Assembly: GCA_009843785.1 (NCBI GenBank)
Contig: VYCT01000369.1
Coordinates: 3,655 to 67,654, forward strand
Reading direction: 5' to 3'
From: Candidatus Poribacteria bacterium
Lineage (GTDB): Bacteria; Poribacteria; WGA-4E; WGA-3G
DNA: 64,000 nt
The notes under the pieces were generated by a model. That model saw only the letters and a list, made by a program, of their open reading frames with translations. It was not told the origin of the DNA and ran no database searches. Shown here piece after piece: positions 9,651-63,303 of the stretch; position 1 is the first letter of the stretch; each line of letters opens with the position of its first letter. A program made the translations under genes and the position numbers.

Positions 9651-10835
9651 TCACGCCTGGCGAATATTTAAAAATACTAATTCAGCAGTACGTTCAGCGG
9701 CACCGGCTGTGCCGAGCTGCGCATAAACTGCTTGAAGCGCTTCTCGTTGTGTTTCCCGTTTTTGTGGATGCTTCAGAAAATCAAGTGCCAACGCCGTCAA
9801 GGCAGTCGGTGTCAGTTCCGTCTGTAGCAGCTCCGGGACAATGTCCCGTCCAGCGATGAGATTAGGAAGTCCGCTCCGGTTTAAAGGGGTCAACGCCTTG
9901 ATGATATGCCAGTTGAATGCTGCCGTACAAAAGAGGATAATCATCGGTGCACCGATACAGGTTGCTTCAAGCGTCGCCGTGCCGGAAGTAACCAGCAGCA
10001 GGGTTGATGCCCGCATCGCTTGATAGGTCTGATTTTCCACAATCTTAATGGACGGGAGCTGTAGGGGCTGGGTTACCCAGCCCCTACACAGTTCCTGCTG
10101 GTGTTTTGCAATGAGGTCACGTGAAATACCTGGTGCTAACGGGAGAATCCAGTGCGCCTTCGGATAGACCTGAGCGATGTTCGCAGCGGCTTTTAGCATG
10201 ACTGGCAAAATGTGACGGATCTCGGAACGGCGACTCCCTGGCATCAACCCGATAACAGGTGCTTCCAGATCGTCTGCCGTTTCACATATATGAAGGCGTT
10301 CGCGTGCGGCTTGTGCACTGAGGGGTGTCTGTGCGAAATCGACGAGCGGATGTCCTACGAATTCCGCGTTCGCACCTGAGTTTCGGTAAAATTCCGCTTC
10401 AAAAGGGAAGATCGCTGCGACGACGTTTGCCCACTTTGCCAGTTTTCGGGCACGGTTCGCACGCCACGCCCACGCCTTTGGTGGAATGTAATAGACAACC
10501 GAAACACCCTGTCTCCGAGCAAATTTCGCTAACGGCATATTAAACTCAGCAAAATCTACCAGGAGGAGCACATCGGGGTGTTCCTCACGGATACGCCTTT
10601 TCAGATATGCCTGCTTGCGAAGGAACATTGGTAGGACAGTGATGACATCGGCAAAACCCATGACAGCGGAATCTCGGATGTGAAGGTCAAGTTTCACCGA
10701 TGCCGCTTCCATCTGGTCGCCGCCCATCCCGAAAAGTGTTATATCTGGACACAGTGCCTTGAGTTGCCGAGCAACATGAGAAGCGTGCAAGTCACCAGAA
10801 GGTTCCCCAGCAACAATCATAACTTTCGGAGCCAT
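9651..10835 (-). CDS. lpxB: Lipid-A-disaccharide synthase (GT19)
   Basis: N-terminal MIVAGEPSGDLHASHVARQLK and C-terminal VTSGTATLEATCIGAPMII are characteristic of LpxB. Confidence 0.9.
   Translation of the reverse strand: MAPKVMIVAGEPSGDLHASHVARQLKALCPDITLFGMGGDQMEAASVKLDLHIRDSAVMGFADVITVLPMFLRKQAYLKRRIREEHPDVLLLVDFAEFNMPLAKFARRQGVSVVYYIPPKAWAWRANRARKLAKWANVVAAIFPFEAEFYRNSGANAEFVGHPLVDFAQTPLSAQAARERLHICETADDLEAPVIGLMPGSRRSEIRHILPVMLKAAANIAQVYPKAHWILPLAPGISRDLIAKHQQELCRGWVTQPLQLPSIKIVENQTYQAMRASTLLLVTSGTATLEATCIGAPMIILFCTAAFNWHIIKALTPLNRSGLPNLIAGRDIVPELLQTELTPTALTALALDFLKHPQKRETQREALQAVYAQLGTAGAAERTAELVFLNIRQA
10061..10087. repeat. 27-bp palindrome GTAGGGGCTGGGTTACCCAGCCCCTAC inside lpxB (REP-like, in frame)
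   Basis: Read directly as 13+1+13 nt self-complementary. It is identical to 14767-14793 and is translated as (C)RGWVTQPL(Q) within LpxB. Confidence 0.9.
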
Positions 10836-14349: not shown

Positions 14350-15639
14350 ATGGCGACCTATACTGCCCGCGGTGGCAAAGACACCGTCATCACATCCGAC
14401 GAAAAACGCGCACTGCTACACGAAGCACTCCTCAAATTGGGCGGCATCCCGAAAAAGATTTTGGTCATCCCGCCGGATATAACACGCCTCCACTCGAACG
14501 CTGGCGAACTCACCCAAATTCTCTACGAGTTATGGGACACCGCAAACGGCACCACCTTTGATATATTGCCCGCTATCGGCACACATGCGCCGATGACCAA
14601 AGCACAGATTGCTGAAATGTACGGTGATCTATCCAAGGCGACATATCACGTCCACAACTGGCGGACCGGGTTATACCACTTCGGCGAAGTGCCATCTGAA
14701 CTCGTGCAAGAGGTTTCGGGCGGCAAGCTTGATTATAGCATACCTGTTGCCGTAAACCGCCGTATTGTAGGGGCTGGGTTACCCAGCCCCTACGAACTCA
14801 TCATCTCGGTCGGACAGGTAATCCCACACGAGGTTATCGGTATCGCCAACGGATTTAAAAACATCCTCGTCGGTGCAGGCGGGGTTGAGATGATTAACAA
14901 ATCGCACTTCCTCGGTGCCGTAGACGGCATGGAACGCCTGATGGGACGCACCGATACCTCTGTCAGGAGAGTCCTAAATTACGCGCATGCAAACTACCTA
15001 AAACAACTCGGTATTTTATATGTCATGAGCGTCATGGATGCCGATGCCTCTGGAGAACGCGTGATGCGCGGGCTTTACGTCGGCGATGATGCACAGACCT
15101 TTGAAACCGCTGCGGAATTGAGCAGAGCCGTTAATATGACGTTCTTGGACGCTCCTCTATCAAAAGTAGTCGTTTATTTGGATCCGCGGGAGTTTAAAAG
15201 CACATGGCTCGGTAACAAGGCGATCTATCGCACCCGGATGGCAATGGCGGACGACGGTGAGTTGATTATCATCGCTCCCGGACTCCGAGAGTTCGGTGAG
15301 GACGCAGAAATCGATCGTCTCATCCGAAAATACGGCTATCGGGGCACACCTGCGACCCTCAACGCTGTCTCGGAGAACCCGGAGTTGCAAGAGAACCTCT
15401 CCGCCGCTGCACACCTGATTCACGGCAGCACCGAAGGACGTTTCAAGGTTGTCTATGCGACGGAACACCTCACCCAAACCGAAATCGAATCGGTCGGCTA
15501 CCAATGGGCTCCCCTCAACGAAGTGATTGCCGAATACAACCCCGAAACGCTTACCGATGGCTTCAACGACCGTGGCTTCTTCTACATCAGCGAACCCGGA
15601 CAAGGGTTGTGGGCACTCCGCTCTCAGTTCAGTGAGTAA
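14350..15639 (+). CDS. LarA-like (DUF2088, nickel-dependent lactate racemase family) protein
   Basis: Size about 430 aa. The N-terminal pattern KILVIPPDITRLHS ... AIGTHAPM ... VGQVIPHEVIG recalls the LarA N-terminal domain. Confidence 0.6.
   Translation: MATYTARGGKDTVITSDEKRALLHEALLKLGGIPKKILVIPPDITRLHSNAGELTQILYELWDTANGTTFDILPAIGTHAPMTKAQIAEMYGDLSKATYHVHNWRTGLYHFGEVPSELVQEVSGGKLDYSIPVAVNRRIVGAGLPSPYELIISVGQVIPHEVIGIANGFKNILVGAGGVEMINKSHFLGAVDGMERLMGRTDTSVRRVLNYAHANYLKQLGILYVMSVMDADASGERVMRGLYVGDDAQTFETAAELSRAVNMTFLDAPLSKVVVYLDPREFKSTWLGNKAIYRTRMAMADDGELIIIAPGLREFGEDAEIDRLIRKYGYRGTPATLNAVSENPELQENLSAAAHLIHGSTEGRFKVVYATEHLTQTEIESVGYQWAPLNEVIAEYNPETLTDGFNDRGFFYISEPGQGLWALRSQFSE
14767..14793. 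repeat. Second copy of the 27-bp palindrome GTAGGGGCTGGGTTACCCAGCCCCTAC, inside the LarA-like gene
   Basis: Identical 27/27 to 10061-10087. Codon-aligned here and translated VGAGLPSPY. Confidence 0.9.
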
Positions 15640-30932: not shown

Positions 30933-30960
30933 GTAATTTTCCTCGCCTCGATCCTCTGCG

Positions 30961-30986
30961 GGCGCGGTCGGGAGACCGCGCCTACA
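30961..30986 (-). repeat. GTAG-headed REP-like hairpin (minus strand TGTAG-GCGCGGTC-TCCC-GACCGCGCC)
   Basis: Read directly. A 9-bp perfect GC stem (30961-30969 with 30974-30982) and a 4-nt loop, with CTACA at 30982-30986 on the plus strand. Confidence 0.7.
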
Positions 30987-31035: not shown

Positions 31036-32142
31036 CTATCGACTCGCTTGTAAGCGTCGAACCCGAGCCGGTGTGTCATCGCCTTGGATCTCCGAGGAAA
31101 GAATGCGGAGGCTCCGATCTTCGACCGGTAACTCAACCTTTACGCAGCCACGGCGATGCGATTCTCGGAGCGCGACGGCTACCTCTAACGCAGCACGACC
31201 ATCTTCACCTGAACACTTCGGCGAAGTCCCGTTCTCAATGGCGTCAATGAGATCTTCAACGATTGTGATGCCCATGCCTTGCATCCGTACAGGGATCGGG
31301 AATGGACATTGTGCAGGCACGCCGCGTCCGCGCCGTCCGCCCGGAATCACACGAATCAACTCAAATGTTTCAGCGTTGTTGACAGAACGGATACGTCCGG
31401 TTGTGCCGATGACATCGACTTCCCACGGTGCCGCGCCACACGACGTGCTGCGGAGATACGCACGCACACCGTTATCAAAAACGAGATAGCCGTTTCCTTG
31501 CAGGTCACTTTCACCTGCAGCGGCTGCATCGGACTGCATCTCACCGAAAACCCACTCAACGTTCCCACCTGCCATATAGCGCAGAATGTCAATCGCATGG
31601 CTGCCGTTATGTGAGAGTCCACACTGGGCATAGACAGTCACCTGCAGCACATCACCGATTTCGCCTTCGTCGATGAGTTTTCGGGCTTCGCTAAAGAACG
31701 GATTCCAGCGTCGCGCACAATTGATTGCCAGCGCGACACCTTCTGTTCGGCAGGTCTCCACTATCTCATCCGCCTCGGCGAGACTGAGCGAAATTGGTTT
31801 CTCTGCCCAGATCGCTTTGACCCTGGAGCGCGCCACATCTTGAACGATAGTTGACCGAATCCGTGCTGTCGTACAGACGCTAACAAGGTCCAGATTTTCC
31901 TTCTCCAGCATCTCACGATAGTCGCTATAGATATGTTCTGCATCCAATCCCCACCGTTCACCGAAAATTGCCCCTTGTTCGGCATGTAGATCAGCCCCGG
32001 CGACCAGTTCTACATTCGGTGCAGCGTGATAAGTTGGACCGTGGCAATACGGTAAAAAGAGCGATCCCCCTTGCGTGATTTCGTCGTCAAAGGTGCTGCC
32101 CATACGTCCTAAACCGATTACACCTGCTCGATAAGTTGTCAT
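31036..32142 (-). CDS. Gfo/Idh/MocA family oxidoreductase
   Basis: N-terminal Rossmann YRAGVIGLGRMGS and the length and architecture typical of the family. Confidence 0.8.
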   Translation of the reverse strand: MTTYRAGVIGLGRMGSTFDDEITQGGSLFLPYCHGPTYHAAPNVELVAGADLHAEQGAIFGERWGLDAEHIYSDYREMLEKENLDLVSVCTTARIRSTIVQDVARSRVKAIWAEKPISLSLAEADEIVETCRTEGVALAINCARRWNPFFSEARKLIDEGEIGDVLQVTVYAQCGLSHNGSHAIDILRYMAGGNVEWVFGEMQSDAAAAGESDLQGNGYLVFDNGVRAYLRSTSCGAAPWEVDVIGTTGRIRSVNNAETFELIRVIPGGRRGRGVPAQCPFPIPVRMQGMGITIVEDLIDAIENGTSPKCSGEDGRAALEVAVALRESHRRGCVKVELPVEDRSLRILSSEIQGDDTPARVRRLQASR

Positions 32143-32166
32143 CTTTTTCTCCTTTTTCGGTAAAAT

Positions 32167-33323
32167 TCAAAGATCACTCTCCCACATAACTTCCGTGACA
32201 ACATCAGCTGTCTTAGTGCTAAATAGTGTAAGACCACCCCAATCCGACACGGCTTCATCTGGATCTTCAGCATCTAAGGTTGAAATGTCTTTGACACCCA
32301 TAACACTCTCCTGACGAGAGAAATAATAGGTTTTGAAAGTTTTTTCATTCAAGATTGTTTCCGAGAGGTTTTTGGAATAGACATTTGCATTCAAATCCAA
32401 CAACTGTCTTAACCGTGCCGGAGCAGTTTTTGATTTAGCAATAAGTCGAATCGCCCAGATAAGTTCTAAGATTTGGGATGAATGCGTAGAAACGATAATT
32501 TTGTAGCCCCGCCGCAAGAGGTCAAAAAGAATAATGAACAAAACCGAAATGGATTGCGGGTGTAATCCCATTTCTGGTTCTTCAATTACAACCCAATTGA
32601 GATTATTTTTTTTCGCGCGCCACCTGAAGGCATTGATTGATACAAGCCCATCAAAAGCGGCACAAATTCTCGCTGCCCCGTGGACCAGGTCATAAAAGGG
32701 AGATGACTACCTGCAACGTCCAAAACGATACGTTTTCGCAAACCGGAACGGTCGAGCTTAACTTGAGCCCCGCCAAAGATATTTTCTCCAATTGTATCTC
32801 GTATGATTTTATTCATACGGCCGGCCTGTGGAAAAATGATGTCCTCACTGGAACCTGAACTCATTTCCAATAGTAAACGCAAATGCTCACTGAATTGCTT
32901 AACAACGTACGGGTCGCCGATAGCGTAGTCAGTAAACGCTCGAGGCCAGCCATCTTTGAGCGTCATCGCCCGATGGGCAGGTATCAGGAACAAGGATTCC
33001 GCTTTTCTCTTTTCTTTTTTCGTTAACACCTCCTCAAGTTCAAATATTTCGTTGTCCACAGTGATTTTTGTTGCTGCGGTGCTCCAAATCTTTTCCATCC
33101 CCTCACCGAAATAGAGGGATAAAAAATGCTCGGTTTTTCCGTGCCAATCAAAGCCGTGCTTCTTAAGAGTCCGAGTAATATCATTTCTATCTAAAATTAA
33201 CTTCACAAGTTGGAGCAGAATGCTTTTCCCACTCGCTTGCTCACCGACAAATACTGTTAAATCGCCAAAGGAAATATCGGCTTCACGAATTTGCCCCAAT
33301 GAAGTTAGTTCAATACGTTCCAT
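32167..33323 (-). pseudogene. ABC/SMC-like AAA ATPase (AAA_15/21-type) split by a frameshift in an A8 run
   Basis: The N-terminal ORF carries Walker A FVGEQASGKS. The C-terminal ORF carries VVIEEPEMGLHP (Walker B/D-loop) and IIVSTHS. The two frames meet at the T8 run 32606-32613, and one extra A would fuse them as ...GGARKKNNLNWVVIEEPEMGLHP. Confidence 0.75.
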
Positions 33324-33366
33324 AATTATCTTGTTCCCCTTTCTAATATGCTAACTGGGTTAATAT

Positions 33367-34005
33367 CTATTTTACTACAATTCGGATTTTTTCATAGACA
33401 AAATCCAGCCACTTGTCTTGTGGTGGTATAATTTTGGGTTTCGGCGAAAGCGGTGTCCAATATGGCTTGAAAATGTGTCCTCTATCGCTCTTTAATTCCC
33501 ATGCATCTTCTGTTTCCTCTTGTGTGCTTAATAGAAAAAAATGCCTCGTTTTCTGCACACCTATGTTTTCATTTGGCACCCATCCGGTAATGTTATAGCA
33601 GATACATGTCGGATTAGGATGTTTGTCGTATTCGATATATGAAATATGCGTAAAATCTGCCCGTATGGAATGGTAATTGACAGTCATCCCCTTTGTGAGT
33701 TTTTCTTTGTAAGGCATCGCGTTTAAATCAGGTTGAATATAAACCTGCGTTGTTTCCACTATTATTCGCTCCCCTTCCGCCAACTCATTCTCAAAACAAC
33801 CCAGATAGCCTTCAATTTCCACAAACTGTAAGCCTGTTTCTTCATAAACTTCTCGCTTTACAGCGGTTTCAAGGTCTTCACTCTTTTCAACAGTCCCTGC
33901 CGGGATCTGGACACCCGCAGTCGGATGTTTGAAAACAAGCAATTCTTTGACACCATTTCTCTCACGTACGATAAAGGCAGTAACCTTTTGGACAACTTCA
34001 TTCAT
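33367..34005 (-). CDS. NUDIX hydrolase with a C-terminal extension
   Basis: Nudix box GTVEKSEDLETAVKREVYEETGL (G-x5-E-x7-REVxEETG). Confidence 0.75.
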   Translation of the reverse strand: MNEVVQKVTAFIVRERNGVKELLVFKHPTAGVQIPAGTVEKSEDLETAVKREVYEETGLQFVEIEGYLGCFENELAEGERIIVETTQVYIQPDLNAMPYKEKLTKGMTVNYHSIRADFTHISYIEYDKHPNPTCICYNITGWVPNENIGVQKTRHFFLLSTQEETEDAWELKSDRGHIFKPYWTPLSPKPKIIPPQDKWLDFVYEKIRIVVK

Positions 34006-34041
34006 TTGTATTTCCCTTAGCTTGTGAAAAGAAAATATCTC

Positions 34042-35187
34042 TTATTTTAACCCTTTAGGTGCCAATTCGCCAATGGAACTTTCCAGAATATCGGAGGCTT
34101 CGGTGGGTATATGCTTAGCCGTTGGCGGAAGCGGTGTATCAAAAAAGTAGTCAGGGTCGGCTTTCTGTCGTTGCCAAGTTTCGCGCATCTCTCGCCAAGC
34201 CCCAAAAAGCGTGCGCGGTTCGGGCATGTCTTCGGCAATTAGATGGTGCAATTTTTTCAAATTGTAGCAGGGCACGCCCGCAAACATGTGATGCTCAATG
34301 TGCCAATTCATACGCCAATACAAAAACTCTGCGACCGGATTCAGCTTGATTGACCGTGCACATTTACGGAAGTCAGGGTCATTTTCCTTTAAACCACAAT
34401 GTTGGGGCATAGAAACGAGGTAGGACCCCCAGTTTGCAATAAATGCGCTGGCAGTGACGATGAGCGGAAACACCCAATAGCCTGTGGCGAGTGAAACGAC
34501 AAACAGTGCACCGTGAAAAAGGAGTAGCATCCGAGACCACCAAATCGAATTTTGATGTTCTTCGGGTTGGTCGGCATGTAGTGATGCCAACCACTCCTGA
34601 CTCGGAATATCTGGCGGTCCTTCTTTGCCAAAGGCACTACGGGTGGTGCAGATAACCGCAGCCATAAGACCGCCTTTGCTAAAGGTGCGACCGGGTTGCG
34701 TGAGCAAATTTATGGTAAACAGTTGAAGCACAAACAGGGAACCCAACTTCGGTTCAAGCGGGAGAAGGTTTTCGCGATCGCCTTCGGGGTATAAGGTGTA
34801 GCGATGATGATAGGTATGGCTACTGGCGTAGTCAAAATGATCCCACCAACTGATGAGGCTAAAGAGATAAAGAAAAAATTTGTTCAACCACTTGGTCCGA
34901 AATACGGTGCCGTGTCCCAATTCGTGATTGGCTGTCCCTTTGAAAAAACTGGCGACCGTGCCATGCACAAATAAGGCAATGCAAAAGCCAAGCCACATCG
35001 CTTGCGACCAAAAGAAGTAGACCCAACTCCCCGTCAATAGCCAGAGGGCAAGATGTCCGCCTGCCTGAAACCAACCTTGCAAATCACTTCGTTTTGATAG
35101 ATCACGTAAGGTGGTGTGGTCTATTCTGCTCCGGTACCATTTTACACGAAGCACTTCGCGTACTTCAGCAAGGGGCTGATAAGTCAT
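34042..35187 (-). CDS. Membrane fatty-acid desaturase family protein
   Basis: Three histidine boxes, HELGHG, HTYHH and HIEHH, interleaved with hydrophobic helices. Confidence 0.8.
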   Translation of the reverse strand: MTYQPLAEVREVLRVKWYRSRIDHTTLRDLSKRSDLQGWFQAGGHLALWLLTGSWVYFFWSQAMWLGFCIALFVHGTVASFFKGTANHELGHGTVFRTKWLNKFFLYLFSLISWWDHFDYASSHTYHHRYTLYPEGDRENLLPLEPKLGSLFVLQLFTINLLTQPGRTFSKGGLMAAVICTTRSAFGKEGPPDIPSQEWLASLHADQPEEHQNSIWWSRMLLLFHGALFVVSLATGYWVFPLIVTASAFIANWGSYLVSMPQHCGLKENDPDFRKCARSIKLNPVAEFLYWRMNWHIEHHMFAGVPCYNLKKLHHLIAEDMPEPRTLFGAWREMRETWQRQKADPDYFFDTPLPPTAKHIPTEASDILESSIGELAPKGLK

Positions 35188-35294
35188 TTGAATCTCCTCT
35201 TTATCGCCAATATTTATTCAACATTTGCCACACTGCCGTCTATTCAACAGCTGCTTTGGAAAATGGTGCCCCTGTATTATACCATTAGGGAAAT

Positions 35295-36533
35295 TTAGTT
35301 TCCATCTTCTGCACTCGGAGATGCTACACCAACAAGTGCGCGTCCGGTCCTTTCCTCAGCACGGAATACAGCGAGGTTATATCCGTTCACGTCTTTGATG
35401 AGCCAGATATGCCCCGCAAACGTGTGCTGATTCACAAAGGTATCAACAGCAACCTTACCATAGTACTTTTCTTCACCGTTACCATCTACCCAATAATAGG
35501 CGATCTCGGTTTCCTTGCCGCCATTCACGAAAATGATTGCGGTTTCGGTGTCGCTGCCTCCTGATCTGAGATTTGGCAGCAGACTCGGATCGTGCTGCTT
35601 TAAGTCTATCCACTTGCCACCGCCATCGCTCTCTGGGTTCTTCAATTGTTGGTGGAATTCTGTCAACTCTATTAACTCGGCAGGCCATTCAAACTTCGGG
35701 GAATCCTCAGGATCGAACCCTTGGAGATGTGAAAGCCTTAAACGTGTCACCGCTCGCGTATATCGCCAGTCCATATCGCCATAAACTTCAGTGAGCAGTG
35801 CTGCAAGCGCGGGGTCGTATTCTTTTAATTTGTCGCGGGTATCAACATGGTTATGTTGGTCGTCGTTTGCCCGGTTCGTGTCAAACCAAGACTGCGTACC
35901 TTCAGCCCAATATTCTGCTCTGTTCGTAATGGCATAGGTATCTTTCCACAACCCTTTTTCAACTGCAGCATCATATAGTACCTTAAGACGGTCATCAAAA
36001 CTCGGATCCACTGTCTTTAATCCCATCTGGTGAATCGCATGCGCGAATTCATGCACCAGAATATTTTCAGTCGAATACGGATCGCCTTCGTAATTAAGCA
36101 AGTTCTCCTCACCACAACTGACAGCGGGTCGGGATGGCGTGGAACCCAAACCGCGTGCGCGCCGGTCCCAATAGTAATCGGGTTGCAGATCGCTGTGTTC
36201 GGGAATCTGCGTCGTCAGTTCGTTATGTGCCATCACAGCAAAACGCACGTTATTTTGTGCGAGTGCCTGTAGTATATCCTGCCGATGCCCGATCATCTGC
36301 TGAATAAGCCAAGCCGCTTCCTTCAGCGCATAAGGACTCACCTTCGCTGATGCGACAACAGGCAACCCCTCCACATCAAGCGACTGCACATAAAACGGAT
36401 CCAAGTTAAAAGTTTCGCGAACATCATTCGGCGGAGGTATAGGTTGAGAAATATTGACGCTTTGCGCTGTTGCAGTTAGTTGAATGGAAAAAAACAGGAC
36501 GTAGATTGTTAAAATGGCAGTCAAATAAAGCAT
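35295..36533 (-). CDS. Secreted HExxH zinc metallopeptidase-like protein with a C-terminal VHL-beta-like domain
   Basis: Signal-like N-terminus and HEFAHAIH. The C-terminal IIFVNGGKETEIAYYWVDGNGEEKYYGKVAVDTFVNQHTFAGHIWLIKD parallels human VHL [48 protein letters not shown] (recalled from memory). Confidence 0.6.
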   Translation of the reverse strand: MLYLTAILTIYVLFFSIQLTATAQSVNISQPIPPPNDVRETFNLDPFYVQSLDVEGLPVVASAKVSPYALKEAAWLIQQMIGHRQDILQALAQNNVRFAVMAHNELTTQIPEHSDLQPDYYWDRRARGLGSTPSRPAVSCGEENLLNYEGDPYSTENILVHEFAHAIHQMGLKTVDPSFDDRLKVLYDAAVEKGLWKDTYAITNRAEYWAEGTQSWFDTNRANDDQHNHVDTRDKLKEYDPALAALLTEVYGDMDWRYTRAVTRLRLSHLQGFDPEDSPKFEWPAELIELTEFHQQLKNPESDGGGKWIDLKQHDPSLLPNLRSGGSDTETAIIFVNGGKETEIAYYWVDGNGEEKYYGKVAVDTFVNQHTFAGHIWLIKDVNGYNLAVFRAEERTGRALVGVASPSAEDGN

Positions 36534-36594
36534 AAGTCAGTCTTCCTTTGGTATTAAGGACTATGTTAAAGTTGAGAGCACATTTGAAAACGTT

Positions 36595-37572
36595 TTATTT
36601 TGATTCTCGAAATAGAAGTAACTGAACAGATTGCTGATCAATTGGATCTAAAGGGTCTTCCTTTTCTGAGATATAGGTGTTAATGCAACGTGCAATATAC
36701 TCTGCCTGTTTCACTGGTACAGCATTCCCAATCATCTGCTCCAAATCGGTTTTCGATCCAGTGAAACAAAAGTCTTTTGGAAAGGTTTGGAGATAACTTC
36801 GTTCTAATGTTGTGAGTGGACGCACTTTTTCTGAAATAAGTGCAGTGTCCTTCGGATGCGCCTTGTATGTTTTTGGAATTGGGCGATTAACGCCTCTTAC
36901 TGTTGGACTCGGTTCATCAATGCTAAAGACAGCGCGGCGGCTATAGTTGCGAGGATGTCGGTAGTAGTGGGCAACGTCAAGACTATCCCCCAAGTAATCA
37001 CGCACTGTCATCGGTTTGGTAATCAGATTGTTATCCAAATAACTCGCGAGAGATCTGCTATCCACAGAGATAGATAGCCCTAATTCACCTATAAGAAAAA
37101 GCCGTTTCCGTCTTTGTGGAACACCACACTGGTTTGCGTCTAAAATTCGCTGTGTTAGTGAATATCCTGCACCTCTTAAAATTTCACCAGCACTACGATA
37201 TCGCTGACTTTTCACAGTTCTATCCACATTTTCCATGACAAACCACTTTGGTTTTGTATGTGCGACAATCTGTGCGAAACTCACAGTCAAATCCGCTCTA
37301 CCTAAATTTTCGTCCCGTTTACCGGCATGCGAAAAATCTTGGCACGGCGGTCCACCAATAATCATATCAAATTGATATGCGTTTAATATTCCTAAACTTT
37401 CTTGCCAATTACCGAGATCTAACTTGTGTATATCATGCGTAAAGTTAGCACGATAAACCTTGATTGCCGGTTCCCAATTATCGAAAGCAGCTACTGCTTC
37501 AAAGCCCGCATTTTGGAATCCGAGTGTCATGCCACCACATCCAGCAAAAAGATCTATAAACTTCATAGACAT
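36595..37572 (-). CDS. dcm: DNA (cytosine-5)-methyltransferase
   Basis: Motif I FIDLFAGCGGMTLGF, motif IV GGPPCQDFS, motif VI ENV, QRRKRLF, and C-terminal GNAVPV. Confidence 0.9.
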   Translation of the reverse strand: MSMKFIDLFAGCGGMTLGFQNAGFEAVAAFDNWEPAIKVYRANFTHDIHKLDLGNWQESLGILNAYQFDMIIGGPPCQDFSHAGKRDENLGRADLTVSFAQIVAHTKPKWFVMENVDRTVKSQRYRSAGEILRGAGYSLTQRILDANQCGVPQRRKRLFLIGELGLSISVDSRSLASYLDNNLITKPMTVRDYLGDSLDVAHYYRHPRNYSRRAVFSIDEPSPTVRGVNRPIPKTYKAHPKDTALISEKVRPLTTLERSYLQTFPKDFCFTGSKTDLEQMIGNAVPVKQAEYIARCINTYISEKEDPLDPIDQQSVQLLLFRESK

Positions 37573-37587
37573 TTGTGTTTTTACCTC

Positions 37588-38688
37588 TTACATGAAAAGT
37601 TCAGGAGAATTAGCCAGAATAGCATCAAATCGTCTTTCTGGACTAAGCATCTTTTCGCCCTGCCCTAAGATAATGTTTTTGATTTCAGTTTTCTTGATTC
37701 TTGGATGTGTGAGTTCTACACAAGACATATAAGGATGAGTCTTTCTTCCACTCAAGGCAAAGGCTTTGTCCGTTTGTCTCGTAAATCCGACACTAACGGT
37801 CTGCGGGTCAATTTTCTCGTCTGTGGCAAAGTCAGAAAGCATTTTCACGATCCACAAAACTGCCCGTTTTGCTCGTGAGAATCCGCGAGTACGTCCTTGT
37901 TCAACTGCATCTAAAAGCAGCTTCGCAAAAGCGAACGTACTCCAGACAAAAACATCCAAACAATTTTCATGAAGTTGAGCAGATTTCCCAACAGTCTTCC
38001 AAATAGGTTGTATAACCAATGGAATCTGATCGTCTATTTTCCCAAGTAACAGAATCTTGATAGTTTGAATAATATGCGGTATCTTCTCCAGCATGCTATC
38101 TTCTGATTCCCAGTCGAAGTTATTCTGAAAGATCGGGCGTAGAGCCTCAGAAAGTTCGTTTTGACGTTCAGCGTACCGCTTAGCAATTTCAAGTGTTAAA
38201 TGGATAATCGTATTCGGACGCACCACAAGTTCACAGCCGTATCCTTCTTCAGGAAAGTTGTAAGTTGAATTATCAGGCAAAGCTGTCAATTTAATCTCCA
38301 ATGCTCGTAGCCAAGGATTTTCAGAATCAGAATTATCCATTACCACTAAATCAATACGAGGTAAAGTTCCTTTGACAAATTGCTGATTTTGTCCATAAGT
38401 ATACTCAAAAGCAAAGTAAATATCTTCAGAATCATACGCATGTCCAAATATAGAGTTCACGTCAATCTTCTCAGGAACGATATTCCAATTCTGATCTAAC
38501 GCCAAGTAAACAGGCGCGATATTTTGACTTTGCATATAACATAATAAGGCGATTGGGAAACAGTTATTAAAGCTGTTTTTGCCCCACGCTTTTGCTTCAC
38601 TGAAGTCCTTGTTTGTGTTAGATGGATTTAACCCAAACAAGGCAGGTCTGTTACCTATTGATGTGAATTTCATCGGATTGGTTACCAT
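37588..38688 (-). CDS. Putative type II restriction endonuclease (PD-(D/E)XK)
   Basis: RIDLVVMD ... ALEIKLTALPD gives a D...ExK signature. It lies 15 nt upstream of the C5 methyltransferase in the same operon. Specificity and family could not be assigned by eye. Confidence 0.55.
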   Translation of the reverse strand: MVTNPMKFTSIGNRPALFGLNPSNTNKDFSEAKAWGKNSFNNCFPIALLCYMQSQNIAPVYLALDQNWNIVPEKIDVNSIFGHAYDSEDIYFAFEYTYGQNQQFVKGTLPRIDLVVMDNSDSENPWLRALEIKLTALPDNSTYNFPEEGYGCELVVRPNTIIHLTLEIAKRYAERQNELSEALRPIFQNNFDWESEDSMLEKIPHIIQTIKILLLGKIDDQIPLVIQPIWKTVGKSAQLHENCLDVFVWSTFAFAKLLLDAVEQGRTRGFSRAKRAVLWIVKMLSDFATDEKIDPQTVSVGFTRQTDKAFALSGRKTHPYMSCVELTHPRIKKTEIKNIILGQGEKMLSPERRFDAILANSPELFM

Positions 38689-38703
38689 TCCTCCAATAGA
38701 ACG

Positions 38704-41700
38704 CTAGACAGGTATTCCATGTGCCGTTATCTCTGAAAGCGGAACCTGATATCTGACATCCTCCATTGGGCTTACCTTATCTGTGGGATTCTGAATGATA
38801 TAGAGTTCTGGTTGCGTTGCGGCGTTAAGGACAATATAAAGAAAATAGTCATCTTTGAGTTCCTGCGCTACGGACCACTCGTTGGATGTGAGGAGGACAG
38901 GATCACGGTAGGCACGGGCTTTTACCTCAATATATCGATTTTTACCATCCGGTGCTGTTGAATGAAGATCGTAACCAAGGTTTTTTGTGGAGACATCTTT
39001 GACAGTACGCTCTCGCTCCTCTTCATACTCGCGAGCATGTTTCATACCGATGTGTTCAATTTCCTTTCTGTCATGCGGAGATGTACTTGTCTCCACCATG
39101 TGTGTATCATCCTCCGTGCCACCACTGCGACCACTACTATGACTGGTGTCTCGATTTCTATTAGGTGTATTGATCCCTTTGCCACCACGCGAGCGTGTTC
39201 TACTTCCACCCGGATGTGATTGACTCGTTGAGGTTTCAAATTCATTCTCCGTTGAATCGTTGTTTTCACTTCCAGTTTCTGGCTCCTCGTGAATTGTTGG
39301 CGTTCCAACATCAGAGTCATTCGGTCTTAAGTCGTCCTCGCTACCAGTCTCACATGAGCATTTCTCATCAACAGATTCTGACGCATTCTCTTCATCTTCT
39401 TTAGAATCTGACTCTGGAGGTAACAGACAGCAATTAGGTTGGAAACCTCTGCGTTTCCAACTCAATAGAGCAGTATTAGACAGATTTACTGCCGATAATA
39501 GATCCTTGACAAACTCGCGGAGTTGGTCAATACGAAAATAATCTTGTAGGGCATCGCCGATTAGATCTGGGTACGCTTTCTCGTCCTCTTCTAATCCTAA
39601 CCAGAGCGTTTGATTCCTCTCATCCAAAAAACTCTGACGCGGGTTTGGATCGGGAGCACGAAATTCTCTCAGTGTGTATTCCACCTCTAATTTTTCGGTT
39701 CGGCAAACTGACATTCGATCCAAAATTTCAGCAGATTTTTTCACTTCGTGCCCTTGGCACAGACGCTGTGAATGGAGGAAATCATGAATGTATGGACGCA
39801 GATTTCGCACCTTTTCAGATAAAATTCTATCTTCTCTTTGCTCACCGGAACAGTTAAATTCAACATCTGATGCTTCACAGCAACCCTCTATCCTTAAATG
39901 CTGCTTCGCAAACTCTAACAAATCACCATCAAACGACCAAAATGGAATGTGTTCCTCCATAAAAAGTCGAGAACGATAATCATCGTCCTTCCAAACCAAT
40001 TCACGCAAACAGAAAAAGTCCCATTTATCTCCCTCTTCGCCAAGCCAACATTTATCTTTAAGCACTTGTCCCCACTCTTTCCACCAATCTTCATTTACCA
40101 GAAAACTTCCGCCTTCTCGCAGTGCCTGCCATAAACGATGGTAAAGGATCTTAACACGTTCACGAACATTCACGTCCTCAGTTTTCCCTACAGATGCAAT
40201 CTTTTGAATGACGCGGACGTAATGTGACGGTGCGGCACCCTCCAAAACCCCCAATCCGATGAAAAACCCTTTCAACGTTTCCTCGTAATCATCTATGAGG
40301 TAACCGCAATGGTTACCAAAGACTGGGCTCTCATCCTTCCAAAACACTTCATGTGCTTTCCACCAATTCGGTTCTGGATTGGAAGTAAAGATAAGTGGTT
40401 TTTGCTTGAATTCCTCGCTTCGACGTGCATCTTGACGCGCAAGAAAACGATAGAGTGGTTCAACCTTTTCAACACTAACTTCCGTGCCACTCAAGGTTTG
40501 AAGATAGTTGAGTACACTATCCGTATTTGCATTCAGATGTATTCCCAATTTCTCAGCCAACCATCGTGCAGCTTCGTTGTCTTGGCTGATATCAAAATCA
40601 GGATGTAGGTAAGCGACACTTTCACCTAACACTCTACGATTCCCATCAGTTGGGGCAAAGCACTTGGAAGGCGTATGAAGCTTGCCGTGTTCATCGGGAA
40701 TCCATGCCGTTTCCTTGAGTTGACAATAGAATGTAGCATCAAAGAGTTTTGATTGATTCTTGCGAAAGTACCAACGATAAATACCTCGAAAGTGGTTATC
40801 AAAGAAAGTTTGGCGGTTCCATTCTCCCGACGGGAGAGGCTTAACCCTTTTAACTAATAGGTGCCAAAGGACATGCGAAAGATTTATTTTTTTATGGTCA
40901 CTAATCTCAACTAACGCCTCCGACAAACCAGGGAAATTGAAGTCTTTAATATTAGTTTGCAGCCCCCACGTAGTTCGTTCCAGTTCAACATTTCGTTTAC
41001 TAAGTTCTTTGTTAAATGCTTGATCGTTTTCGGATTTGGCAGAGATGTTCTTTTCGATAACACACGGAATATCCATAGCCCCAATCGCTTTCAAAAACTG
41101 AAGCCAATCTCTCCGATTGGAATCATTTTCCAGATAGGTATCATCCACAAACCAAATGTCGCTATTGGATACCGAAAAATAGGTTTCCAAATCCGCATTA
41201 CCTGTGTAGGCCTTTGGTAAGTAAATATCACAAGGTTTTACAAAATCATAGGTTTCTGGTTGACGGCTGTTATAAGCCAGCAGGATTGAAACCTTGCTGA
41301 GCTCTTCCCTCAATTGCCTATGCTCATTTCCCGAAAGTTCATTCCAAACTCTGAAAATGTAACGTACATGCAAACGGTTTTGTTCTTTAGAAGGTTTGTC
41401 AGACCAACGATATTGCCGGATAATCCATTTGCTAATCATTTCTTCAGAGTTTGAAATCCTAACGTCCAGCTTCCCGAGGAAAGCTTTGATGTCGTTCCCT
41501 TCTTCTCCTTTAAGAAGAATCGACTGAAGAATAGGTAAATCCATGAGAAACGGTTTGAGATCTTCACGCCCTTCATCGGTATCCGGCGGGAAGAACACCA
41601 ATTTATAATTTGTAGACACATGCCGCCCATTTTCAAGGCGAACCAATGGTAGTCTTTTGATACGACCCAATTCAGAGTTCTGACTATTTAAATAGACATA

Positions 41701-43155
41701 CAAAAAACGCAGCCATTCTTCGCATCTACTCTCAAACCAGTTATTGTCTTGCTTTTCCAGCCAACCCAACACTTGGCTGATCCCTATTTCTCTCACCCCT
41801 GCCTCACGCATTACCTTAAAGCACCGACGAAACTCTTCCGTTTCTCCTATTTCAGGATGTAACCAACCGCTGTTCGGATACAACCAACGACTTTCAACCA
41901 ATTCTCGCAAGGACTCACGGTGTGGATAAAATACGTTCTCAGCTTTTGCATACCCACCGTCTTGTGTTGGTACAAAAACTCTTTCTTGCATTGCTTTTTG
42001 TAATGCGTCAGCAATAGGTTTAAACTCATTTTCCACTTCGCCTTTCAGAGGTAATATATTGAAAAATGCTGGTTCAAGTAAATCGTTTACCTTCAACTGT
42101 TCCAAAATTTTAGGGAGAAATTTAGCCGTTTCCTGCACTAACCATTTATTCCATGGATTTTCACTTGGATCTTGGATATCCGCACGTCCTGATGTTGTCT
42201 GATACCGTGCCTGAATGAGGAATTTCAGGTGTGTCTCTTTCTGCGTAGGAAGATAAGCGAATAGGACAGAGTTATCATCCATTGCTGTGATACTACCGTC
42301 ATGCAGTTTGAACGCGATTTCAATTGGTTGTTGTTTTTTCGCTGATTGCTGAATTTTCTGTCGTTTTTCGTCATGTTTAGTCTGTTTTAAAAGCGCATCA
42401 ATCACATTTTCTGGTGGTTGAACCGCCTTGTGGAAAACGAGGAACATCTCTGATAATTGATTTTCACCATTCAGGGACATTGTCAACTCAACTTCAGACG
42501 CGTCCTGAATCTTACTATGAGGATGATGGATACAAGAACAAATTCCAGTTCGACCCTCACGCTCATCAATCCATCTAATTGTTTTGAAGTCTTTTTTGAA
42601 ATCTCGTTGGAGATCACGTAGGAATAACAAAACATACCTCTCACCTAATTTGCAGAACTGATCTTTCAAGAGCACGATGTCTTCCTGGCTCAGATCATCT
42701 TTAAAAGGCAGGCGGAAGACTGTTCGACCTTGGCTAACTTGTTCTACAATTTGCGGTGTTGTCTTATCAATGCCTTCAGGCTGCGTAAGATCTCGGATAC
42801 GAAAATGTTCATCGTCAGAGTATATTTCTGGGCAATCTGTGTAGTTGTAAACCGACTTGAAACCGATGCCAAAAGTCCCAATTTGCGTTAAGTCTTTACT
42901 ACTTGAACCTAATGAACAGATGCTACGTACATCTTTTTCGCTGAACTGATCCCCATCGTTCCAAACGAATAGTTCATTCTCTCCTAATCGCAGTTCCAAT
43001 TGAGAACTTTTGCTGTCAACAGCGTTCTGGATAAACTCATAGACGAAATGCGTTTTTTCTTTGTAAAGTTGTTCATAGAAGAAGCGACGGTACTCTGGAT
43101 CTGAGCCGTAGCGCACTTGGTTTTCTTCAGCTATCTTTTTGTAATCTGTTGCCAT
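38704..43155 (-). CDS. NO VEIN/sacsin-like GHKL ATPase with C-terminal DUF3883 (NOV_C, restriction-endonuclease-like) domain, 1483 aa
   Basis: N-terminal Bergerat-fold motifs FVYEFIQNAVDS, WNDGDQFSEKD and IGTFGIGFKSVY. C-terminal GMKHAREYEEE...GYDLHS...RYIEVKA...LTSNEW....DYFLYIV is typical of DUF3883. An acidic/Ser-rich linker lies at 39067-39420. Confidence 0.75.
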   Translation of the reverse strand: MATDYKKIAEENQVRYGSDPEYRRFFYEQLYKEKTHFVYEFIQNAVDSKSSQLELRLGENELFVWNDGDQFSEKDVRSICSLGSSSKDLTQIGTFGIGFKSVYNYTDCPEIYSDDEHFRIRDLTQPEGIDKTTPQIVEQVSQGRTVFRLPFKDDLSQEDIVLLKDQFCKLGERYVLLFLRDLQRDFKKDFKTIRWIDEREGRTGICSCIHHPHSKIQDASEVELTMSLNGENQLSEMFLVFHKAVQPPENVIDALLKQTKHDEKRQKIQQSAKKQQPIEIAFKLHDGSITAMDDNSVLFAYLPTQKETHLKFLIQARYQTTSGRADIQDPSENPWNKWLVQETAKFLPKILEQLKVNDLLEPAFFNILPLKGEVENEFKPIADALQKAMQERVFVPTQDGGYAKAENVFYPHRESLRELVESRWLYPNSGWLHPEIGETEEFRRCFKVMREAGVREIGISQVLGWLEKQDNNWFESRCEEWLRFLYVYLNSQNSELGRIKRLPLVRLENGRHVSTNYKLVFFPPDTDEGREDLKPFLMDLPILQSILLKGEEGNDIKAFLGKLDVRISNSEEMISKWIIRQYRWSDKPSKEQNRLHVRYIFRVWNELSGNEHRQLREELSKVSILLAYNSRQPETYDFVKPCDIYLPKAYTGNADLETYFSVSNSDIWFVDDTYLENDSNRRDWLQFLKAIGAMDIPCVIEKNISAKSENDQAFNKELSKRNVELERTTWGLQTNIKDFNFPGLSEALVEISDHKKINLSHVLWHLLVKRVKPLPSGEWNRQTFFDNHFRGIYRWYFRKNQSKLFDATFYCQLKETAWIPDEHGKLHTPSKCFAPTDGNRRVLGESVAYLHPDFDISQDNEAARWLAEKLGIHLNANTDSVLNYLQTLSGTEVSVEKVEPLYRFLARQDARRSEEFKQKPLIFTSNPEPNWWKAHEVFWKDESPVFGNHCGYLIDDYEETLKGFFIGLGVLEGAAPSHYVRVIQKIASVGKTEDVNVRERVKILYHRLWQALREGGSFLVNEDWWKEWGQVLKDKCWLGEEGDKWDFFCLRELVWKDDDYRSRLFMEEHIPFWSFDGDLLEFAKQHLRIEGCCEASDVEFNCSGEQREDRILSEKVRNLRPYIHDFLHSQRLCQGHEVKKSAEILDRMSVCRTEKLEVEYTLREFRAPDPNPRQSFLDERNQTLWLGLEEDEKAYPDLIGDALQDYFRIDQLREFVKDLLSAVNLSNTALLSWKRRGFQPNCCLLPPESDSKEDEENASESVDEKCSCETGSEDDLRPNDSDVGTPTIHEEPETGSENNDSTENEFETSTSQSHPGGSRTRSRGGKGINTPNRNRDTSHSSGRSGGTEDDTHMVETSTSPHDRKEIEHIGMKHAREYEEERERTVKDVSTKNLGYDLHSTAPDGKNRYIEVKARAYRDPVLLTSNEWSVAQELKDDYFLYIVLNAATQPELYIIQNPTDKVSPMEDVRYQVPLSEITAHGIPV

Positions 43156-43207
43156 AATTTGTTTCCTTATAGAATCTGGTTGAAACTTCAGCTAACACCT
43201 TTTACAT

Positions 43208-43423
43208 TCACCGACTCATTGAACGGGAATCAAAACGCATCGGAATTTCTCCTTCTTTAATTGCGTTTAGCAATGCCTCCGCGTCCTCCAGAGTTACATC
43301 ATGTGATTTGTTAATAGCTGCTAAGATCCGCTTGGGTTGGCCTTTTCGTTTAAGTTTGGACAAATCCTGCAGGTTCCCTAAATTTTCTGTTGGAATTTCT
43401 GATTTCCAGACGAGATATTCCAA
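43208..43423 (-). CDS. Small hypothetical protein (71 aa, TTG start), possibly a decayed antitoxin-like gene
   Basis: An open frame with only a TTG start. An ATG-initiated 35-codon ORF in another frame overlaps its 5' end, which suggests decay. Confidence 0.25.
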   Translation of the reverse strand: MEYLVWKSEIPTENLGNLQDLSKLKRKGQPKRILAAINKSHDVTLEDAEALLNAIKEGEIPMRFDSRSMSR

Positions 43424-43784
43424 AGTAACGCTTCAATTCTTCGATCCCAGAAGTAGATAATTTCTCGATGGTATTCAGTATCCATTTTTCCTGTAACTGA
43501 CACGGTTTTTCTCCTTCTTCGCAATGCGGAGATGCTGCTTGCCAATAAACGGATCGCGCAACCCTCTCAGCAAATCTACTATAAGAGCTTATCAGAATTT
43601 ACGACCCGCGTCAAACGCTTCTGCGTTTTCACAAGGCTATTTCCTATCCGGCAAGCACTACGTCCTTTCCTGATACTTCAGTTCTTGCCAGATGGCGCGC
43701 ATCTGCCACACATCCATTAAAACGACCTTTGCCTTCTCACCAATTCGGAGTTCTTCCTATGTATCTGCCATATCAGGTTATCCG

Positions 43785-44483
43785 TTACTTAGAAATTTCT
43801 TTGTAAGTCTTTGATTTTGCGTGGCGGGACTTATTTCTCAGACTCCATACGCTGCCAACAAAATTGCTGTCAATCAGTTGTTGAAAAATTTGATGGCGCG
43901 CGGACGGTTTGAGTTCAAACTGATCTGTTTCCGGTGAAAATGGATAAAGGTCGGCTTCACCCGCCAGCAGAAGAAAATATTTACCGCGGTTATCCGGAAG
44001 GAAAATAGGGCCTTTCCATTCCAAATATTCAACTACCGGTGGTGTCCCCGGGATAGACATTCTCGCGTGGAGGAGAACCTCTGTCCTGTCCTGTAGTTTG
44101 ATAGAAGCAGGGAGTTTGTTTTCGAGTCGGATGTCACCGTGAAAATATGGGGTCCGAAAGAACATCCGCGCCGAGAAAGCCAAAAACTTGGATGAATTAA
44201 ATGCGTACGGCAGATAGTATCCGTCCAAACTCATCTCGTCTTCATTAAGGCAAATCCCAATGGCAATACCAAACTCCCTAAACTTGAATCCCCTCCACTT
44301 CGCATCTATCGCGCTGAGTCGGAGAACCGCCCTACCCGCTTCCTTGTATGGGAGGAGATTCTCCTTGCGCAATACGGCTTCCCAGAACGATAAGTCCGCT
44401 GTGCCGTGAAGGGTTACCTCTTTGACATTATAAAGATCTGCGGCGTATTCGACAGGGGTGTTTGCAGCTGCATTGTTAGGCAT
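43785..44483 (-). CDS. Hypothetical protein (233 aa)
   Basis: ATG 44483 gives an 8-nt overlap with the GH32 stop. The longer ORF-track version overlaps GH32 by 270 nt with an Arg/Cys-rich, non-protein-like N-terminus. Confidence 0.55.
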   Translation of the reverse strand: MPNNAAANTPVEYAADLYNVKEVTLHGTADLSFWEAVLRKENLLPYKEAGRAVLRLSAIDAKWRGFKFREFGIAIGICLNEDEMSLDGYYLPYAFNSSKFLAFSARMFFRTPYFHGDIRLENKLPASIKLQDRTEVLLHARMSIPGTPPVVEYLEWKGPIFLPDNRGKYFLLLAGEADLYPFSPETDQFELKPSARHQIFQQLIDSNFVGSVWSLRNKSRHAKSKTYKEISK

Positions 44484-47227: not shown

Positions 47228-47293
47228 GTAGGGGTTGGGAATGTAATACAAGGAATGGATTTAGTCTATTCCCAGACTAAATCCCCCAATCCC
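47228..47293 (+). repeat. Composite GTAG-headed hairpin just after the uxuA stop
   Basis: GTAGGGGTTGGG (one mismatch to the first 12 nt of the 27-bp palindrome). The outer stem GGGGTTGGG (47231-47239) pairs with CCCAATCCC (47285-47293). The inner perfect 11-bp stem is GGATTTAGTCT (47257-47267) with AGACTAAATCC (47274-47284). Confidence 0.6.
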
Positions 47294-47447
47294 GACGAGC
47301 AACAGGTGTAAACTTATTTTCGGATTTTACTATAATAACCTAACTTGCTACCTATGTGATTTTAGACGCACGAATACCATTTTTCAGTGAAAATCTGTCA
47401 TTTTTGCGAAAAACTTGGCGTGTTTCTTACCATTTTCGGCACGAAGA

Positions 47448-63158: not shown

Positions 63159-63303
63159 CTTTCATTAACAAAAAACTCGTTCGTAGTAGCGCAATTCTGC
63201 GGCGTACTCGCCCAAATGCGACGTGCATTATTGCGCCTTGGACATGCGACATTACCTATGCGTTTCAAAATCTCTGAAATGCGATTTTTTTTCAGATTTG
63301 GTA

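Follow-up and report, generated by a model that had tools for sequence, protein, structure and literature searches.

A dispersed 27-bp palindrome replaces native sequence and resides in frame in conserved genes of Candidatus Poribacteria

Can a palindrome of only 27 bp spread through bacterial genomes and persist in frame inside conserved protein-coding genes? This question is raised by a 64,000-nt stretch of Candidatus Poribacteria DNA (GenBank assembly GCA_009843785.1, contig VYCT01000369.1, positions 3,655 to 67,654 of the forward strand; hereafter, the window), in which the 27-mer GTAGGGGCTGGGTTACCCAGCCCCTAC, a perfect inverted repeat of 13+1+13 nt, occurs as two identical copies at positions 10061-10087 and 14767-14793. 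An earlier note, made from the sequence alone, had placed these copies inside lpxB and a LarA-like gene and proposed a small palindromic mobile element which has a GTAG head like that of repetitive extragenic palindromes (REPs) and survives in frame within coding sequence. Both the dispersal of the 27-mer and comparisons of filled and empty sites support this proposal, and we regard the 27-mer as very probably a mobile repeat.

A scan of the window and an inverted-repeat check confirmed the two copies with 27/27 identity. No other copy with up to 3 mismatches was detected in the window, and 100 dinucleotide-preserving shuffles gave 0 matches. The DNA folding energy of the 27-mer was -13.9 kcal/mol (z = -4.8), and the sequence has the form of a short (20-40 bp) palindromic stem-loop repeat that is typical of REPs. 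The first copy is located in lpxB (lipid-A-disaccharide synthase, 9651-10835, minus strand; Pfam PF02684 LpxB, 2.7e-83), where it is read on the minus strand as RGWVTQPL. Its translation, C-RGWVTQPL-Q, lies approximately 25 residues upstream of the TSGTATLE block. E. coli LpxB (PDB 5W8S) could be aligned with the whole open reading frame (ORF), and this alignment, together with one of 80 orthologues, placed the site in a segment that is gapped and variable against the E. coli protein, which agrees with the variable segment described before. The second copy is read on the plus strand as VGAGLPSPY (I-VGAGLPSPY-E) in a gene at 14350-15639 (plus strand) for a DUF2088/lactate-racemase N-terminal domain protein (Pfam PF09861 Lar_N), which bears out the LarA-like assignment. 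Two of the three frames of the 27-mer are open and the third contains TAG; the two window copies use both open frames. Because the 27-mer is its own reverse complement except for the centre base, this pattern is the same in both orientations.

We fetched 80 lpxB and 80 Lar_N orthologues independently of the repeat and added MurJ and SufD homologues, for selected members of which DNA was obtained. Five comparisons of filled and empty sites resulted, and the empty state was the conserved and ancestral one. In the Lar_N gene, the empty sequence ctc GTAGAGGGCGACTAC gaa (L-V-E-G-D-Y-E) corresponded to a filled site GTAG-GGGCTGGGTTACCCAGCCC-CTAC, and the protein grew from 425 to 429 aa. The empty state GTAGAGGGCGACTAC (V-E-G-D-Y) was present in approximately 60 of 70 readable orthologous loci and in approximately 90 of 120 listed homologous proteins. 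In SufD (452 to 456 aa), the empty forms were gat GTA GAC TAC agc, that is, GTAG-A-CTAC, or GTT GAC TAC AGT GAA, and the filled form was gat [27-mer] gcc gaa, such that GTA GAC TAC plus the next AGT GAA were overwritten. In MurJ (547 to 551 aa), aga aAT TTA GAT GCT GTT Gaa cac was replaced with aat a[27-mer]aa cac, and the native segment overwritten was ATTTAGATGCTGTTG. In lpxB, ctgt TAGGTACTG agatccc corresponded to ctgt [27-mer] agatccc (+6 aa); three orthologues (L122, L123 and L164 in our numbering of fetched loci) had TAGGTACTG or TGGGTATTG in place of the 27-mer. The fifth site was the lpxB-lpxK spacer, in which caac TTTAGTACAC ttgc or caac TTCAGCACAC ttgc corresponded to caac GTAGGGGTTGGGTTACCCAACCCCTAC tggc (approximately +17 nt). 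Both GTAGAGGGCGACTAC and GTAGACTAC are native (empty-site) target sequences.

These comparisons revealed replacement rather than clean insertion. At all five sites 9-15 native nt were overwritten, with a net gain of 12-18 nt, and no target-site duplication was present at any of them; native bases were lost instead. The 27-mer does not fit the definition of miniature inverted-repeat transposable elements (MITEs), which combine terminal inverted repeats (TIRs) matching an insertion sequence (IS) with a target-site duplication. Orthologues without the 27-mer residues were found at all five loci, consistent with a derived gain. The clean 9-residue insertion expected in LpxB was not observed, since the orthologue alignment showed 6 residues gained and approximately 3 replaced; likewise, the Lar_N protein gained 4 residues rather than a full 27 nt. 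In all five cases a native (G/T)TAG was located at the left junction or within approximately 2 nt of it, and at two of the five empty sites (Lar_N and SufD) a complete native GTAG...CTAC was present. Since GTAG-N0-9-CTAC occurs only 2 times in the whole window, these two exact matches are not due to chance. A build-up by point mutation, as for uptake signals, was dropped, as the gains were abrupt 27-nt replacements. Separately, GTAG (131) and CTAC (152) were both below the approximately 250 occurrences expected in the window, and GTAG-N0-9-CTAC was found 2 times versus 9.4 in shuffles. The low counts of the two tetranucleotides probably reflect general TAG avoidance, and with this confounder the depletion was not used as a sign of site consumption.

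Among close relatives, the gains were derived, polymorphic and mosaic. CAZQIP01 had a filled lpxB site and an empty Lar_N site, OZ220722 had an empty lpxB site and a filled Lar_N site, and OX639973 carried a different 27-nt palindrome, GTAGGGGCGAGGTGACCTCGCCCCTAC, in lpxB and a 33-nt relative in Lar_N. Furthermore, five cassettes were identified at one codon position of the Lar_N gene in closely related genomes: (i) the 27-mer; (ii) a 33-nt palindrome, aTAGGGGAAACCGGGTTACCCGGTTCCCCCTAC (L232); (iii) a hybrid of the 33-mer left arm and the 27-mer right arm (L240); (iv) the reciprocal hybrid (L257); and (v) a composite of 69 nt, into whose loop 45 nt are inserted (L350). Decayed copies were frequent in the unbiased lpxB and Lar_N orthologue series, so there is no sign that the host needs the 27-mer at these sites.

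Several family variants were also identified. GTAGGGGTTGGGT.ACCCAACCCCTAC (3 copies) and GTAGGGGCGAGGT.ACCTCGCCCCTAC (2 copies) are perfect 27-nt palindromes with paired changes in both arms. All symmetric variants (5/5) kept Watson-Crick pairing and contained no G-T pairs, which points to DNA, and not an RNA hairpin, as the level at which they are constrained or generated. GTAGGTGCGGTTTGAAACCGCACCTAC and GTAGGCGCGCTTTTAAAGCGCGCCTAC are further perfect 27-nt palindromes that share the GTAGG...CCTAC ends and have unrelated interiors.

The earlier note had left the presence of the 27-mer elsewhere in the genome as a point to check, and the sequence proved to be widespread, in many loci and many genomes. 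In a scan of one genome per species, exact copies (centre base N) were detected in at least 118 genome stretches, nearly all from sponge-derived Candidatus Poribacteria metagenome-assembled genomes (MAGs) or chromosomes. In SB0670_bin_33, a single draft genome and the nearest relative of the window, the 27-mer was present in at least 16 loci, and one spirochaete assembly contained it in at least 12. A few exact matches occurred in MAGs labelled Chloroflexi (including an 891-kb Villigracilis contig), Spirochaetia, Desulfobacca, Nitrospirae, Omnitrophota and Latescibacterota, and a metagenome scan added 33 contigs with the exact 27-mer and a G+C content of 39-69%. The loci L001-L118 and L314-L346 were fetched by exact match, so that their invariance is by construction and says nothing on conservation. 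The centre base was T/A in 99 copies and C/G in 22. No exact copy was found in IMG/VR (0), and PLSDB and INPHARED, which cover plasmids and phages, yielded partial matches at chance level only. On these grounds we rejected the idea that viruses or plasmids carry the 27-mer. Rfam 15 gave 0 matches at gathering score in the whole window. A literature search for Poribacteria and palindromic sequences returned CRISPR-related mentions only, with no description of the 27-mer.

The copies were found in three contexts. At least 41 of 121 sampled copies were central in a MITE-like unit of approximately 130 bp with TIRs TATAGTAAAGC...GCTTTACTATA and apparent TA flanks, which was seen in L009, L018, L024, L032, L050, L061 and approximately 35 more loci. 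The same MITE frame also carried other central hairpins, e.g., GGCGAGGATACAATCCTCGCC, and the 27-mer is therefore a module within the MITE. Of the 80 non-MITE copies, approximately 20 were within long ORFs of 300-2282 aa, each of which reads the copy in one or the other open frame. All 10 host ORFs included in a Pfam scan were real genes: LpxB, Lar_N, BatA, a CarboxypepD_reg protein, an S49 peptidase, an HHH_3/T2SSK protein, a GT1 glycosyltransferase, MurJ, SufB/D and an FAD oxidoreductase. Approximately three quarters of the non-MITE copies were outside long ORFs, such that the repeat, like REPs, is mainly extragenic and near gene 3' ends. In a marine-sediment spirochaete, for example, all copies checked were 15-40 nt past stop codons. 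Half-sites were never found as the ends of a longer element and occurred only beside full or decayed copies; a longer element with 13-nt TIRs was rejected on this basis. The unit is the 27-mer itself.

Additional observations concern the surroundings of individual copies. In Chloroflexi (L002:1626, L100:4955, L318 and L325), the exact 27-mer was present at an orthologous site directly 3' of rplT, at the end of the infC-rpmI-rplT operon and ahead of a macro-domain gene. On seven spirochaete contigs (L316, L317, L324, L326, L328, L338 and L346), each copy had its own perfect inverted flank of 4-9 bp, such as ATCACCT[27]AGGTGAT, GTCATCCC[27]GGGATGAC and CACTTAGCC[27]GGCTAAGTG. These extensions may reflect insertion into existing hairpins or fold-back extension. 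Tandem partial duplications of one 27-mer arm adjoined full copies at L012:4907-4950, L064:1183-1280, L020:2234 and L083:5573, and those of L064 were within a 404-aa ORF.

We also examined the occurrence of REP-associated tyrosine transposase (RAYT) genes, for which a search had been proposed in the earlier note. Bona fide RAYTs are present in Poribacteria, where they are flanked by a REP different from the 27-mer. These proteins have approximately 200 aa and the motifs LPNHYHLL and YIHYNPTKH. Their score for the NCBIfam REP-associated tyrosine transposase equivalog, which has a cut-off of 80, was 97 bits, and they also passed Pfam Y1_Tnp. Their flanking REPs and inverted pairs have the form GTTCGTAGTAG[GT]GC[GA]ATT[CT]AT... 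/ ...GGGCAATGAATTGCCCTACTACGAAC. The flanks of the 27-mer were biased (TC|GTAG...CTAC|GA), and this bias matches the TCGTAG head of the RAYT-flanking REPs (GTTCGTAGTAG). With the TC/GA preference, the 27-mer ends CGTAGGGGC/GCCCCTACG resemble the outer ends of the classical REP doublet, CGTAGTAGGGC/GCCCTACTACG. At L199-L230, two RAYT clades of Poribacteria were observed, several of whose members were truncated or frameshifted, set in arrays of classical REP doublets; close homologues were found in contigs labelled Aquidulcis, Halotia and Verrucomicrobiia.

Taken together, we somewhat favor the reading that the 27-mer is a REP-class micro-palindrome moved as a single-stranded DNA hairpin by a RAYT-like enzyme. 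Its parts differ in strength: the 27-mer probably belongs to the REP class, and we infer the single-stranded route and name RAYT as the mobilising enzyme only tentatively. TnpA-REP is known to bind folded single-stranded REPs and to use GTAG for recognition and choice of the cleavage site; any 3'-OH can accept the 5' end that it has cleaved (PMC8266576). In the proposed mechanism, an HUH/Y1 tyrosine transposase of the RAYT (TnpA-REP) type would copy or move the 27-mer as a hairpin, with GTAG serving as guide and recognition motif. One junction would form at a GTAG-like tetranucleotide already in the target, for which a resident family member would be the best possible target, and the other would be resolved less precisely, which would explain why a few native nt are overwritten without target-site duplication. 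With two of three frames open in both orientations, the insert would encode one of two Gly/Pro-rich loops, VGAGLPSPY or RGWVTQPL, and selection would keep only those events that change length by a multiple of 3 in tolerant surface segments. The 27-mer would also hitch-hike at the apex of the approximately 130-bp MITE, and a resident copy would then decay like neutral sequence. It would in effect be a minimal REPIN (REP doublet forming a hairpin) of two 13-nt arms that starts with (TC)GTAGGGGC and ends with GCCCCTAC(GA).

Several observations weigh against this mechanism. Neither a RAYT nor another transposase was found beside the 27-mer in approximately 150 fetched loci containing it, and the 32 Poribacteria-type RAYT loci had different REP flanks and no 27-mer. 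All-against-all clustering of ORFs within 3 kb around the copies revealed no recurrent neighbour transposase, and phmmer searches with E. coli RAYT, IS200 TnpA and the Poribacteria RAYTs detected only a truncated remnant in L003, 5 kb from the 27-mer; a REPtron, i.e., a RAYT flanked by the same REP, was absent from the fetched loci. The junction rule is incomplete, as the right junction matched a native CTAC only in the Lar_N case and the empty comparators, from genomes 86-96% identical, are not true pre-insertion alleles. In addition, E. coli TnpA-REP is inactive once the bulged stem is made regular, although Group 3 enzymes do use perfect palindromes (PMC8266576). REPIN-RAYT systems are described as lineage-specific and vertically inherited (bioRxiv 10.1101/2022.05.22.493013), whereas MAGs that bear the labels of several phyla contain the exact 27-mer. 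Finally, the REP-like GTAG head is indeed present, but it is mirrored by CTAC and base-paired at both ends, whereas the REP tag is unpaired and found at one end only, as defined by Di Nocera et al. (PMC3733652).

Could the 27-mer be copied without any transposase? Template switching during replication or microhomology-mediated gene conversion would fit the absence of a dedicated enzyme beside the copies in the fetched loci, as well as the junctions with 3-4 nt of microhomology, the lost native nt and the lack of target-site duplication. In such a process a nascent strand ending in ...TAG would jump to a hairpin-exposed copy, copy it and return, and fold-back synthesis would keep or extend palindromy, a feature that often reaches past the 27-mer through copy-specific flanks of 4-9 bp in the marine-sediment spirochaete; the hybrid arms at one site (Lar_N) would fit as well. 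At the lpxB copy of the window, the palindromic flank extension is only 1 nt, so the fold-back idea is unsupported there. Moreover, microhomology of 3-4 nt is non-specific, yet the same 27 nt recurred at dozens of unrelated loci and in unrelated taxa, the strong TCGTAG head common to RAYT-associated REPs is left unexplained, and hybrids persist in many lineages without correction to perfect palindromes. We consider this explanation unlikely. A hairpin selected by the host as a terminator, mRNA stabiliser or protein-binding palindrome, with genic copies as by-products, appears less credible still. The RNA hairpin is very stable, many intergenic copies are 15-40 nt after stop codons, an orthologous copy is just 3' of rplT in several Chloroflexi, and the exact sequence is common to taxa of 39-69% G+C; however, most copies have no following T-tract, no Rfam family matched, and the variants preserve strict Watson-Crick symmetry rather than G-U-tolerant RNA pairing. 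Orthologous genic copies also decay, hybridise or are absent in close relatives, and a regulatory role cannot explain in-frame copies in 10 mutually unrelated genes.

The large share of sampled copies that are central in the MITE (at least 41 of 121), and the window copy at 47228 which adjoins half a MITE, might suggest that solo 27-mers are excision footprints or internal fragments of the approximately 130-bp element with TATAGTAAAGC TIRs. This is very unlikely, as MITE sequence is missing from both sides of the genic and of most intergenic solo copies, the MITE frame exists with other central hairpins, and copies in other phyla are found in different contexts. For an assembly or sequencing artefact (adapter or chimeric junction), the only hint is how odd it is that many assemblies contain an exact 27-mer, and its probability is close to nil: independent assemblies, produced by different assemblers and including long-read chromosomes, had the identical insert at the same codon (site-matched insertions in L119, L121, L231 and L237), the reading frame was kept in real genes, decayed and variant copies exist, and plasmid, phage and viral collections contained nothing beyond chance partial matches. 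A CRISPR repeat, dif/Xer site, CIRCE, attC and protelomerase site were considered and set aside, as the copies do not form arrays and the 13+1+13 architecture and the sequence do not seem to fit.

A more far-reaching version of the enzymatic reading, which we regard as doubtful, is that GTAG...CTAC palindromes form a cross-phylum cassette family moved by cut-and-replace. Here, a hairpin-specific HUH enzyme would swap in another cassette for the content between GTAG and a nearby CTAC-like site, be it a resident family member or native codons. This would account for the overwritten bases, the five cassettes with reciprocal half-hybrids, the nested inserts at hairpin tips and the sequence identity across distant taxa; if true, REPs would spread in a way for which there is as yet no description. 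The mechanisms of REP dissemination are poorly understood (PMC8266576).

The window contains further members of this and related families. A third member at 47228-47335, overlooked in the earlier note, is an intergenic, partly decayed composite (47228-47297) consisting of GTAGGGGTTGGG, a 45-nt loop insert and the decayed arm CCCAATCCCGAC, fused to the right half of the approximately 130-bp MITE (...GTGTAAACTTATTTTCGGATTTTACTATA, 47298-47335), as determined by comparison with the MITE alignment. The 45-nt nested insert has its own hairpin, GGATTTAGTCT/AGACTAAATCC, and the same insert was found in frame in the 27-mer loop of the Lar_N gene of L350. Another example is a classical Poribacteria REP of the RAYT-flanking type at 63179-63238 (plus strand), GTTCGTAGTAGCGCAATT...ATTGCGCC, which belongs to a related family and not to the 27-mer. 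It carries an insert of approximately 33 nt, CTGCGGCGTACTCGCCCAAATGCGACGTGCATT, exactly in the hairpin loop, and the same composite was observed beside RAYT genes in L201, L202, L219 and L225; this insert has the appearance of another small element, one with hairpin tips as its target. A hairpin at 30955-30985, GCGCGGTC-GGGA-GACCGCGC, followed by CTAC, may belong to the GTAGGCGCGGTT...AACCGCGCCTAC subfamily as a decayed copy. The region 32001-44000 had a G+C content of 0.42-0.45, compared with approximately 0.49-0.52 elsewhere in the window, and may be an acquired island.

The 27-mer family provides natural before/after alleles at single-nucleotide resolution in conserved genes. Because these alleles show landing at GTAG, overwriting and cassette turnover, the mechanism is directly testable. 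Essential proteins of uncultivated sponge symbionts (LpxB, MurJ and SufD) gain Gly/Pro-rich loops from selfish DNA, and the occurrence of one 27-nt sequence in bacteria of 39-69% G+C bears on the horizontal spread of such repeats. Gene callers and phylogenies built on alignments can also be misled by the 27-mer, which might in turn be useful for marking strains.

Several known systems resemble the 27-mer in part. Rickettsia palindromic elements (RPEs), with which the earlier note had compared it, are palindromic repeats of approximately 100-150 bp that are in frame in conserved protein genes and add a tolerated peptide. The likeness holds at the functional level, i.e., persistence in frame in coding sequence; it does not extend to sequence or length, as RPEs are unrelated in sequence and restricted to Rickettsia, whereas the 27-mer adds only 4-6 residues net. 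Small dispersed repeats of cyanobacteria (Elhai et al. 2008) are reportedly approximately 21-27 nt long, mobile, found inside genes and nested in MITE-like elements; to our knowledge, they differ in sequence and structure and have no GTAG/CTAC ends. IS200/IS605 elements (IS608 and ISDra2) share recognition of a single-stranded DNA hairpin, a tetranucleotide that guides cleavage, a short target motif and the lack of target duplication (PMC8266576), but they carry their own tnpA and two different ends, and insert 3' of the target motif without overwriting bases.

The closest relatives appear to be REPs and REPINs. Like these, the 27-mer is a short G+C-rich palindrome with a GTAG head and many dispersed copies, mostly just 3' of genes, that lacks target-site duplications; compensatory changes in the arms distinguish its subfamilies, the same genomes encode bona fide RAYTs, and the TCGTAG head is common to the 27-mer and the RAYT-flanking REPs. 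A REPIN, which is the presumed mobilised unit (PMC3116915) and is mostly vertically inherited (bioRxiv 10.1101/2022.05.22.493013), consists of two REP hairpins and a spacer, whereas the 27-mer has only one stem, a perfect one of 13 bp around a 1-nt centre; its arms contain no internal REP hairpin, and it resembles a REPIN only at its outer ends. It also differs in that it flanks no RAYT gene found and that the same sequence occurs in MAGs labelled as different phyla. For other phyla, Di Nocera et al. (2013, PMC3733652) documented intragenic REPs with GTAG/CGTC tags, which are wholly inside ORFs and translated, in some cases share their site between related species, and are present in deep-branching phyla. 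In the sections consulted, Poribacteria are not among the phyla named, and neither replacement of native GTAG...CTAC codons nor alternative cassettes at one site are described. The 27-mer is of an already known kind, that of REP-like palindromes, intragenic ones included, to which it adds an apparently undescribed feature: native GTAG...(CTAC) microsites are replaced, and cassettes turn over at one site.

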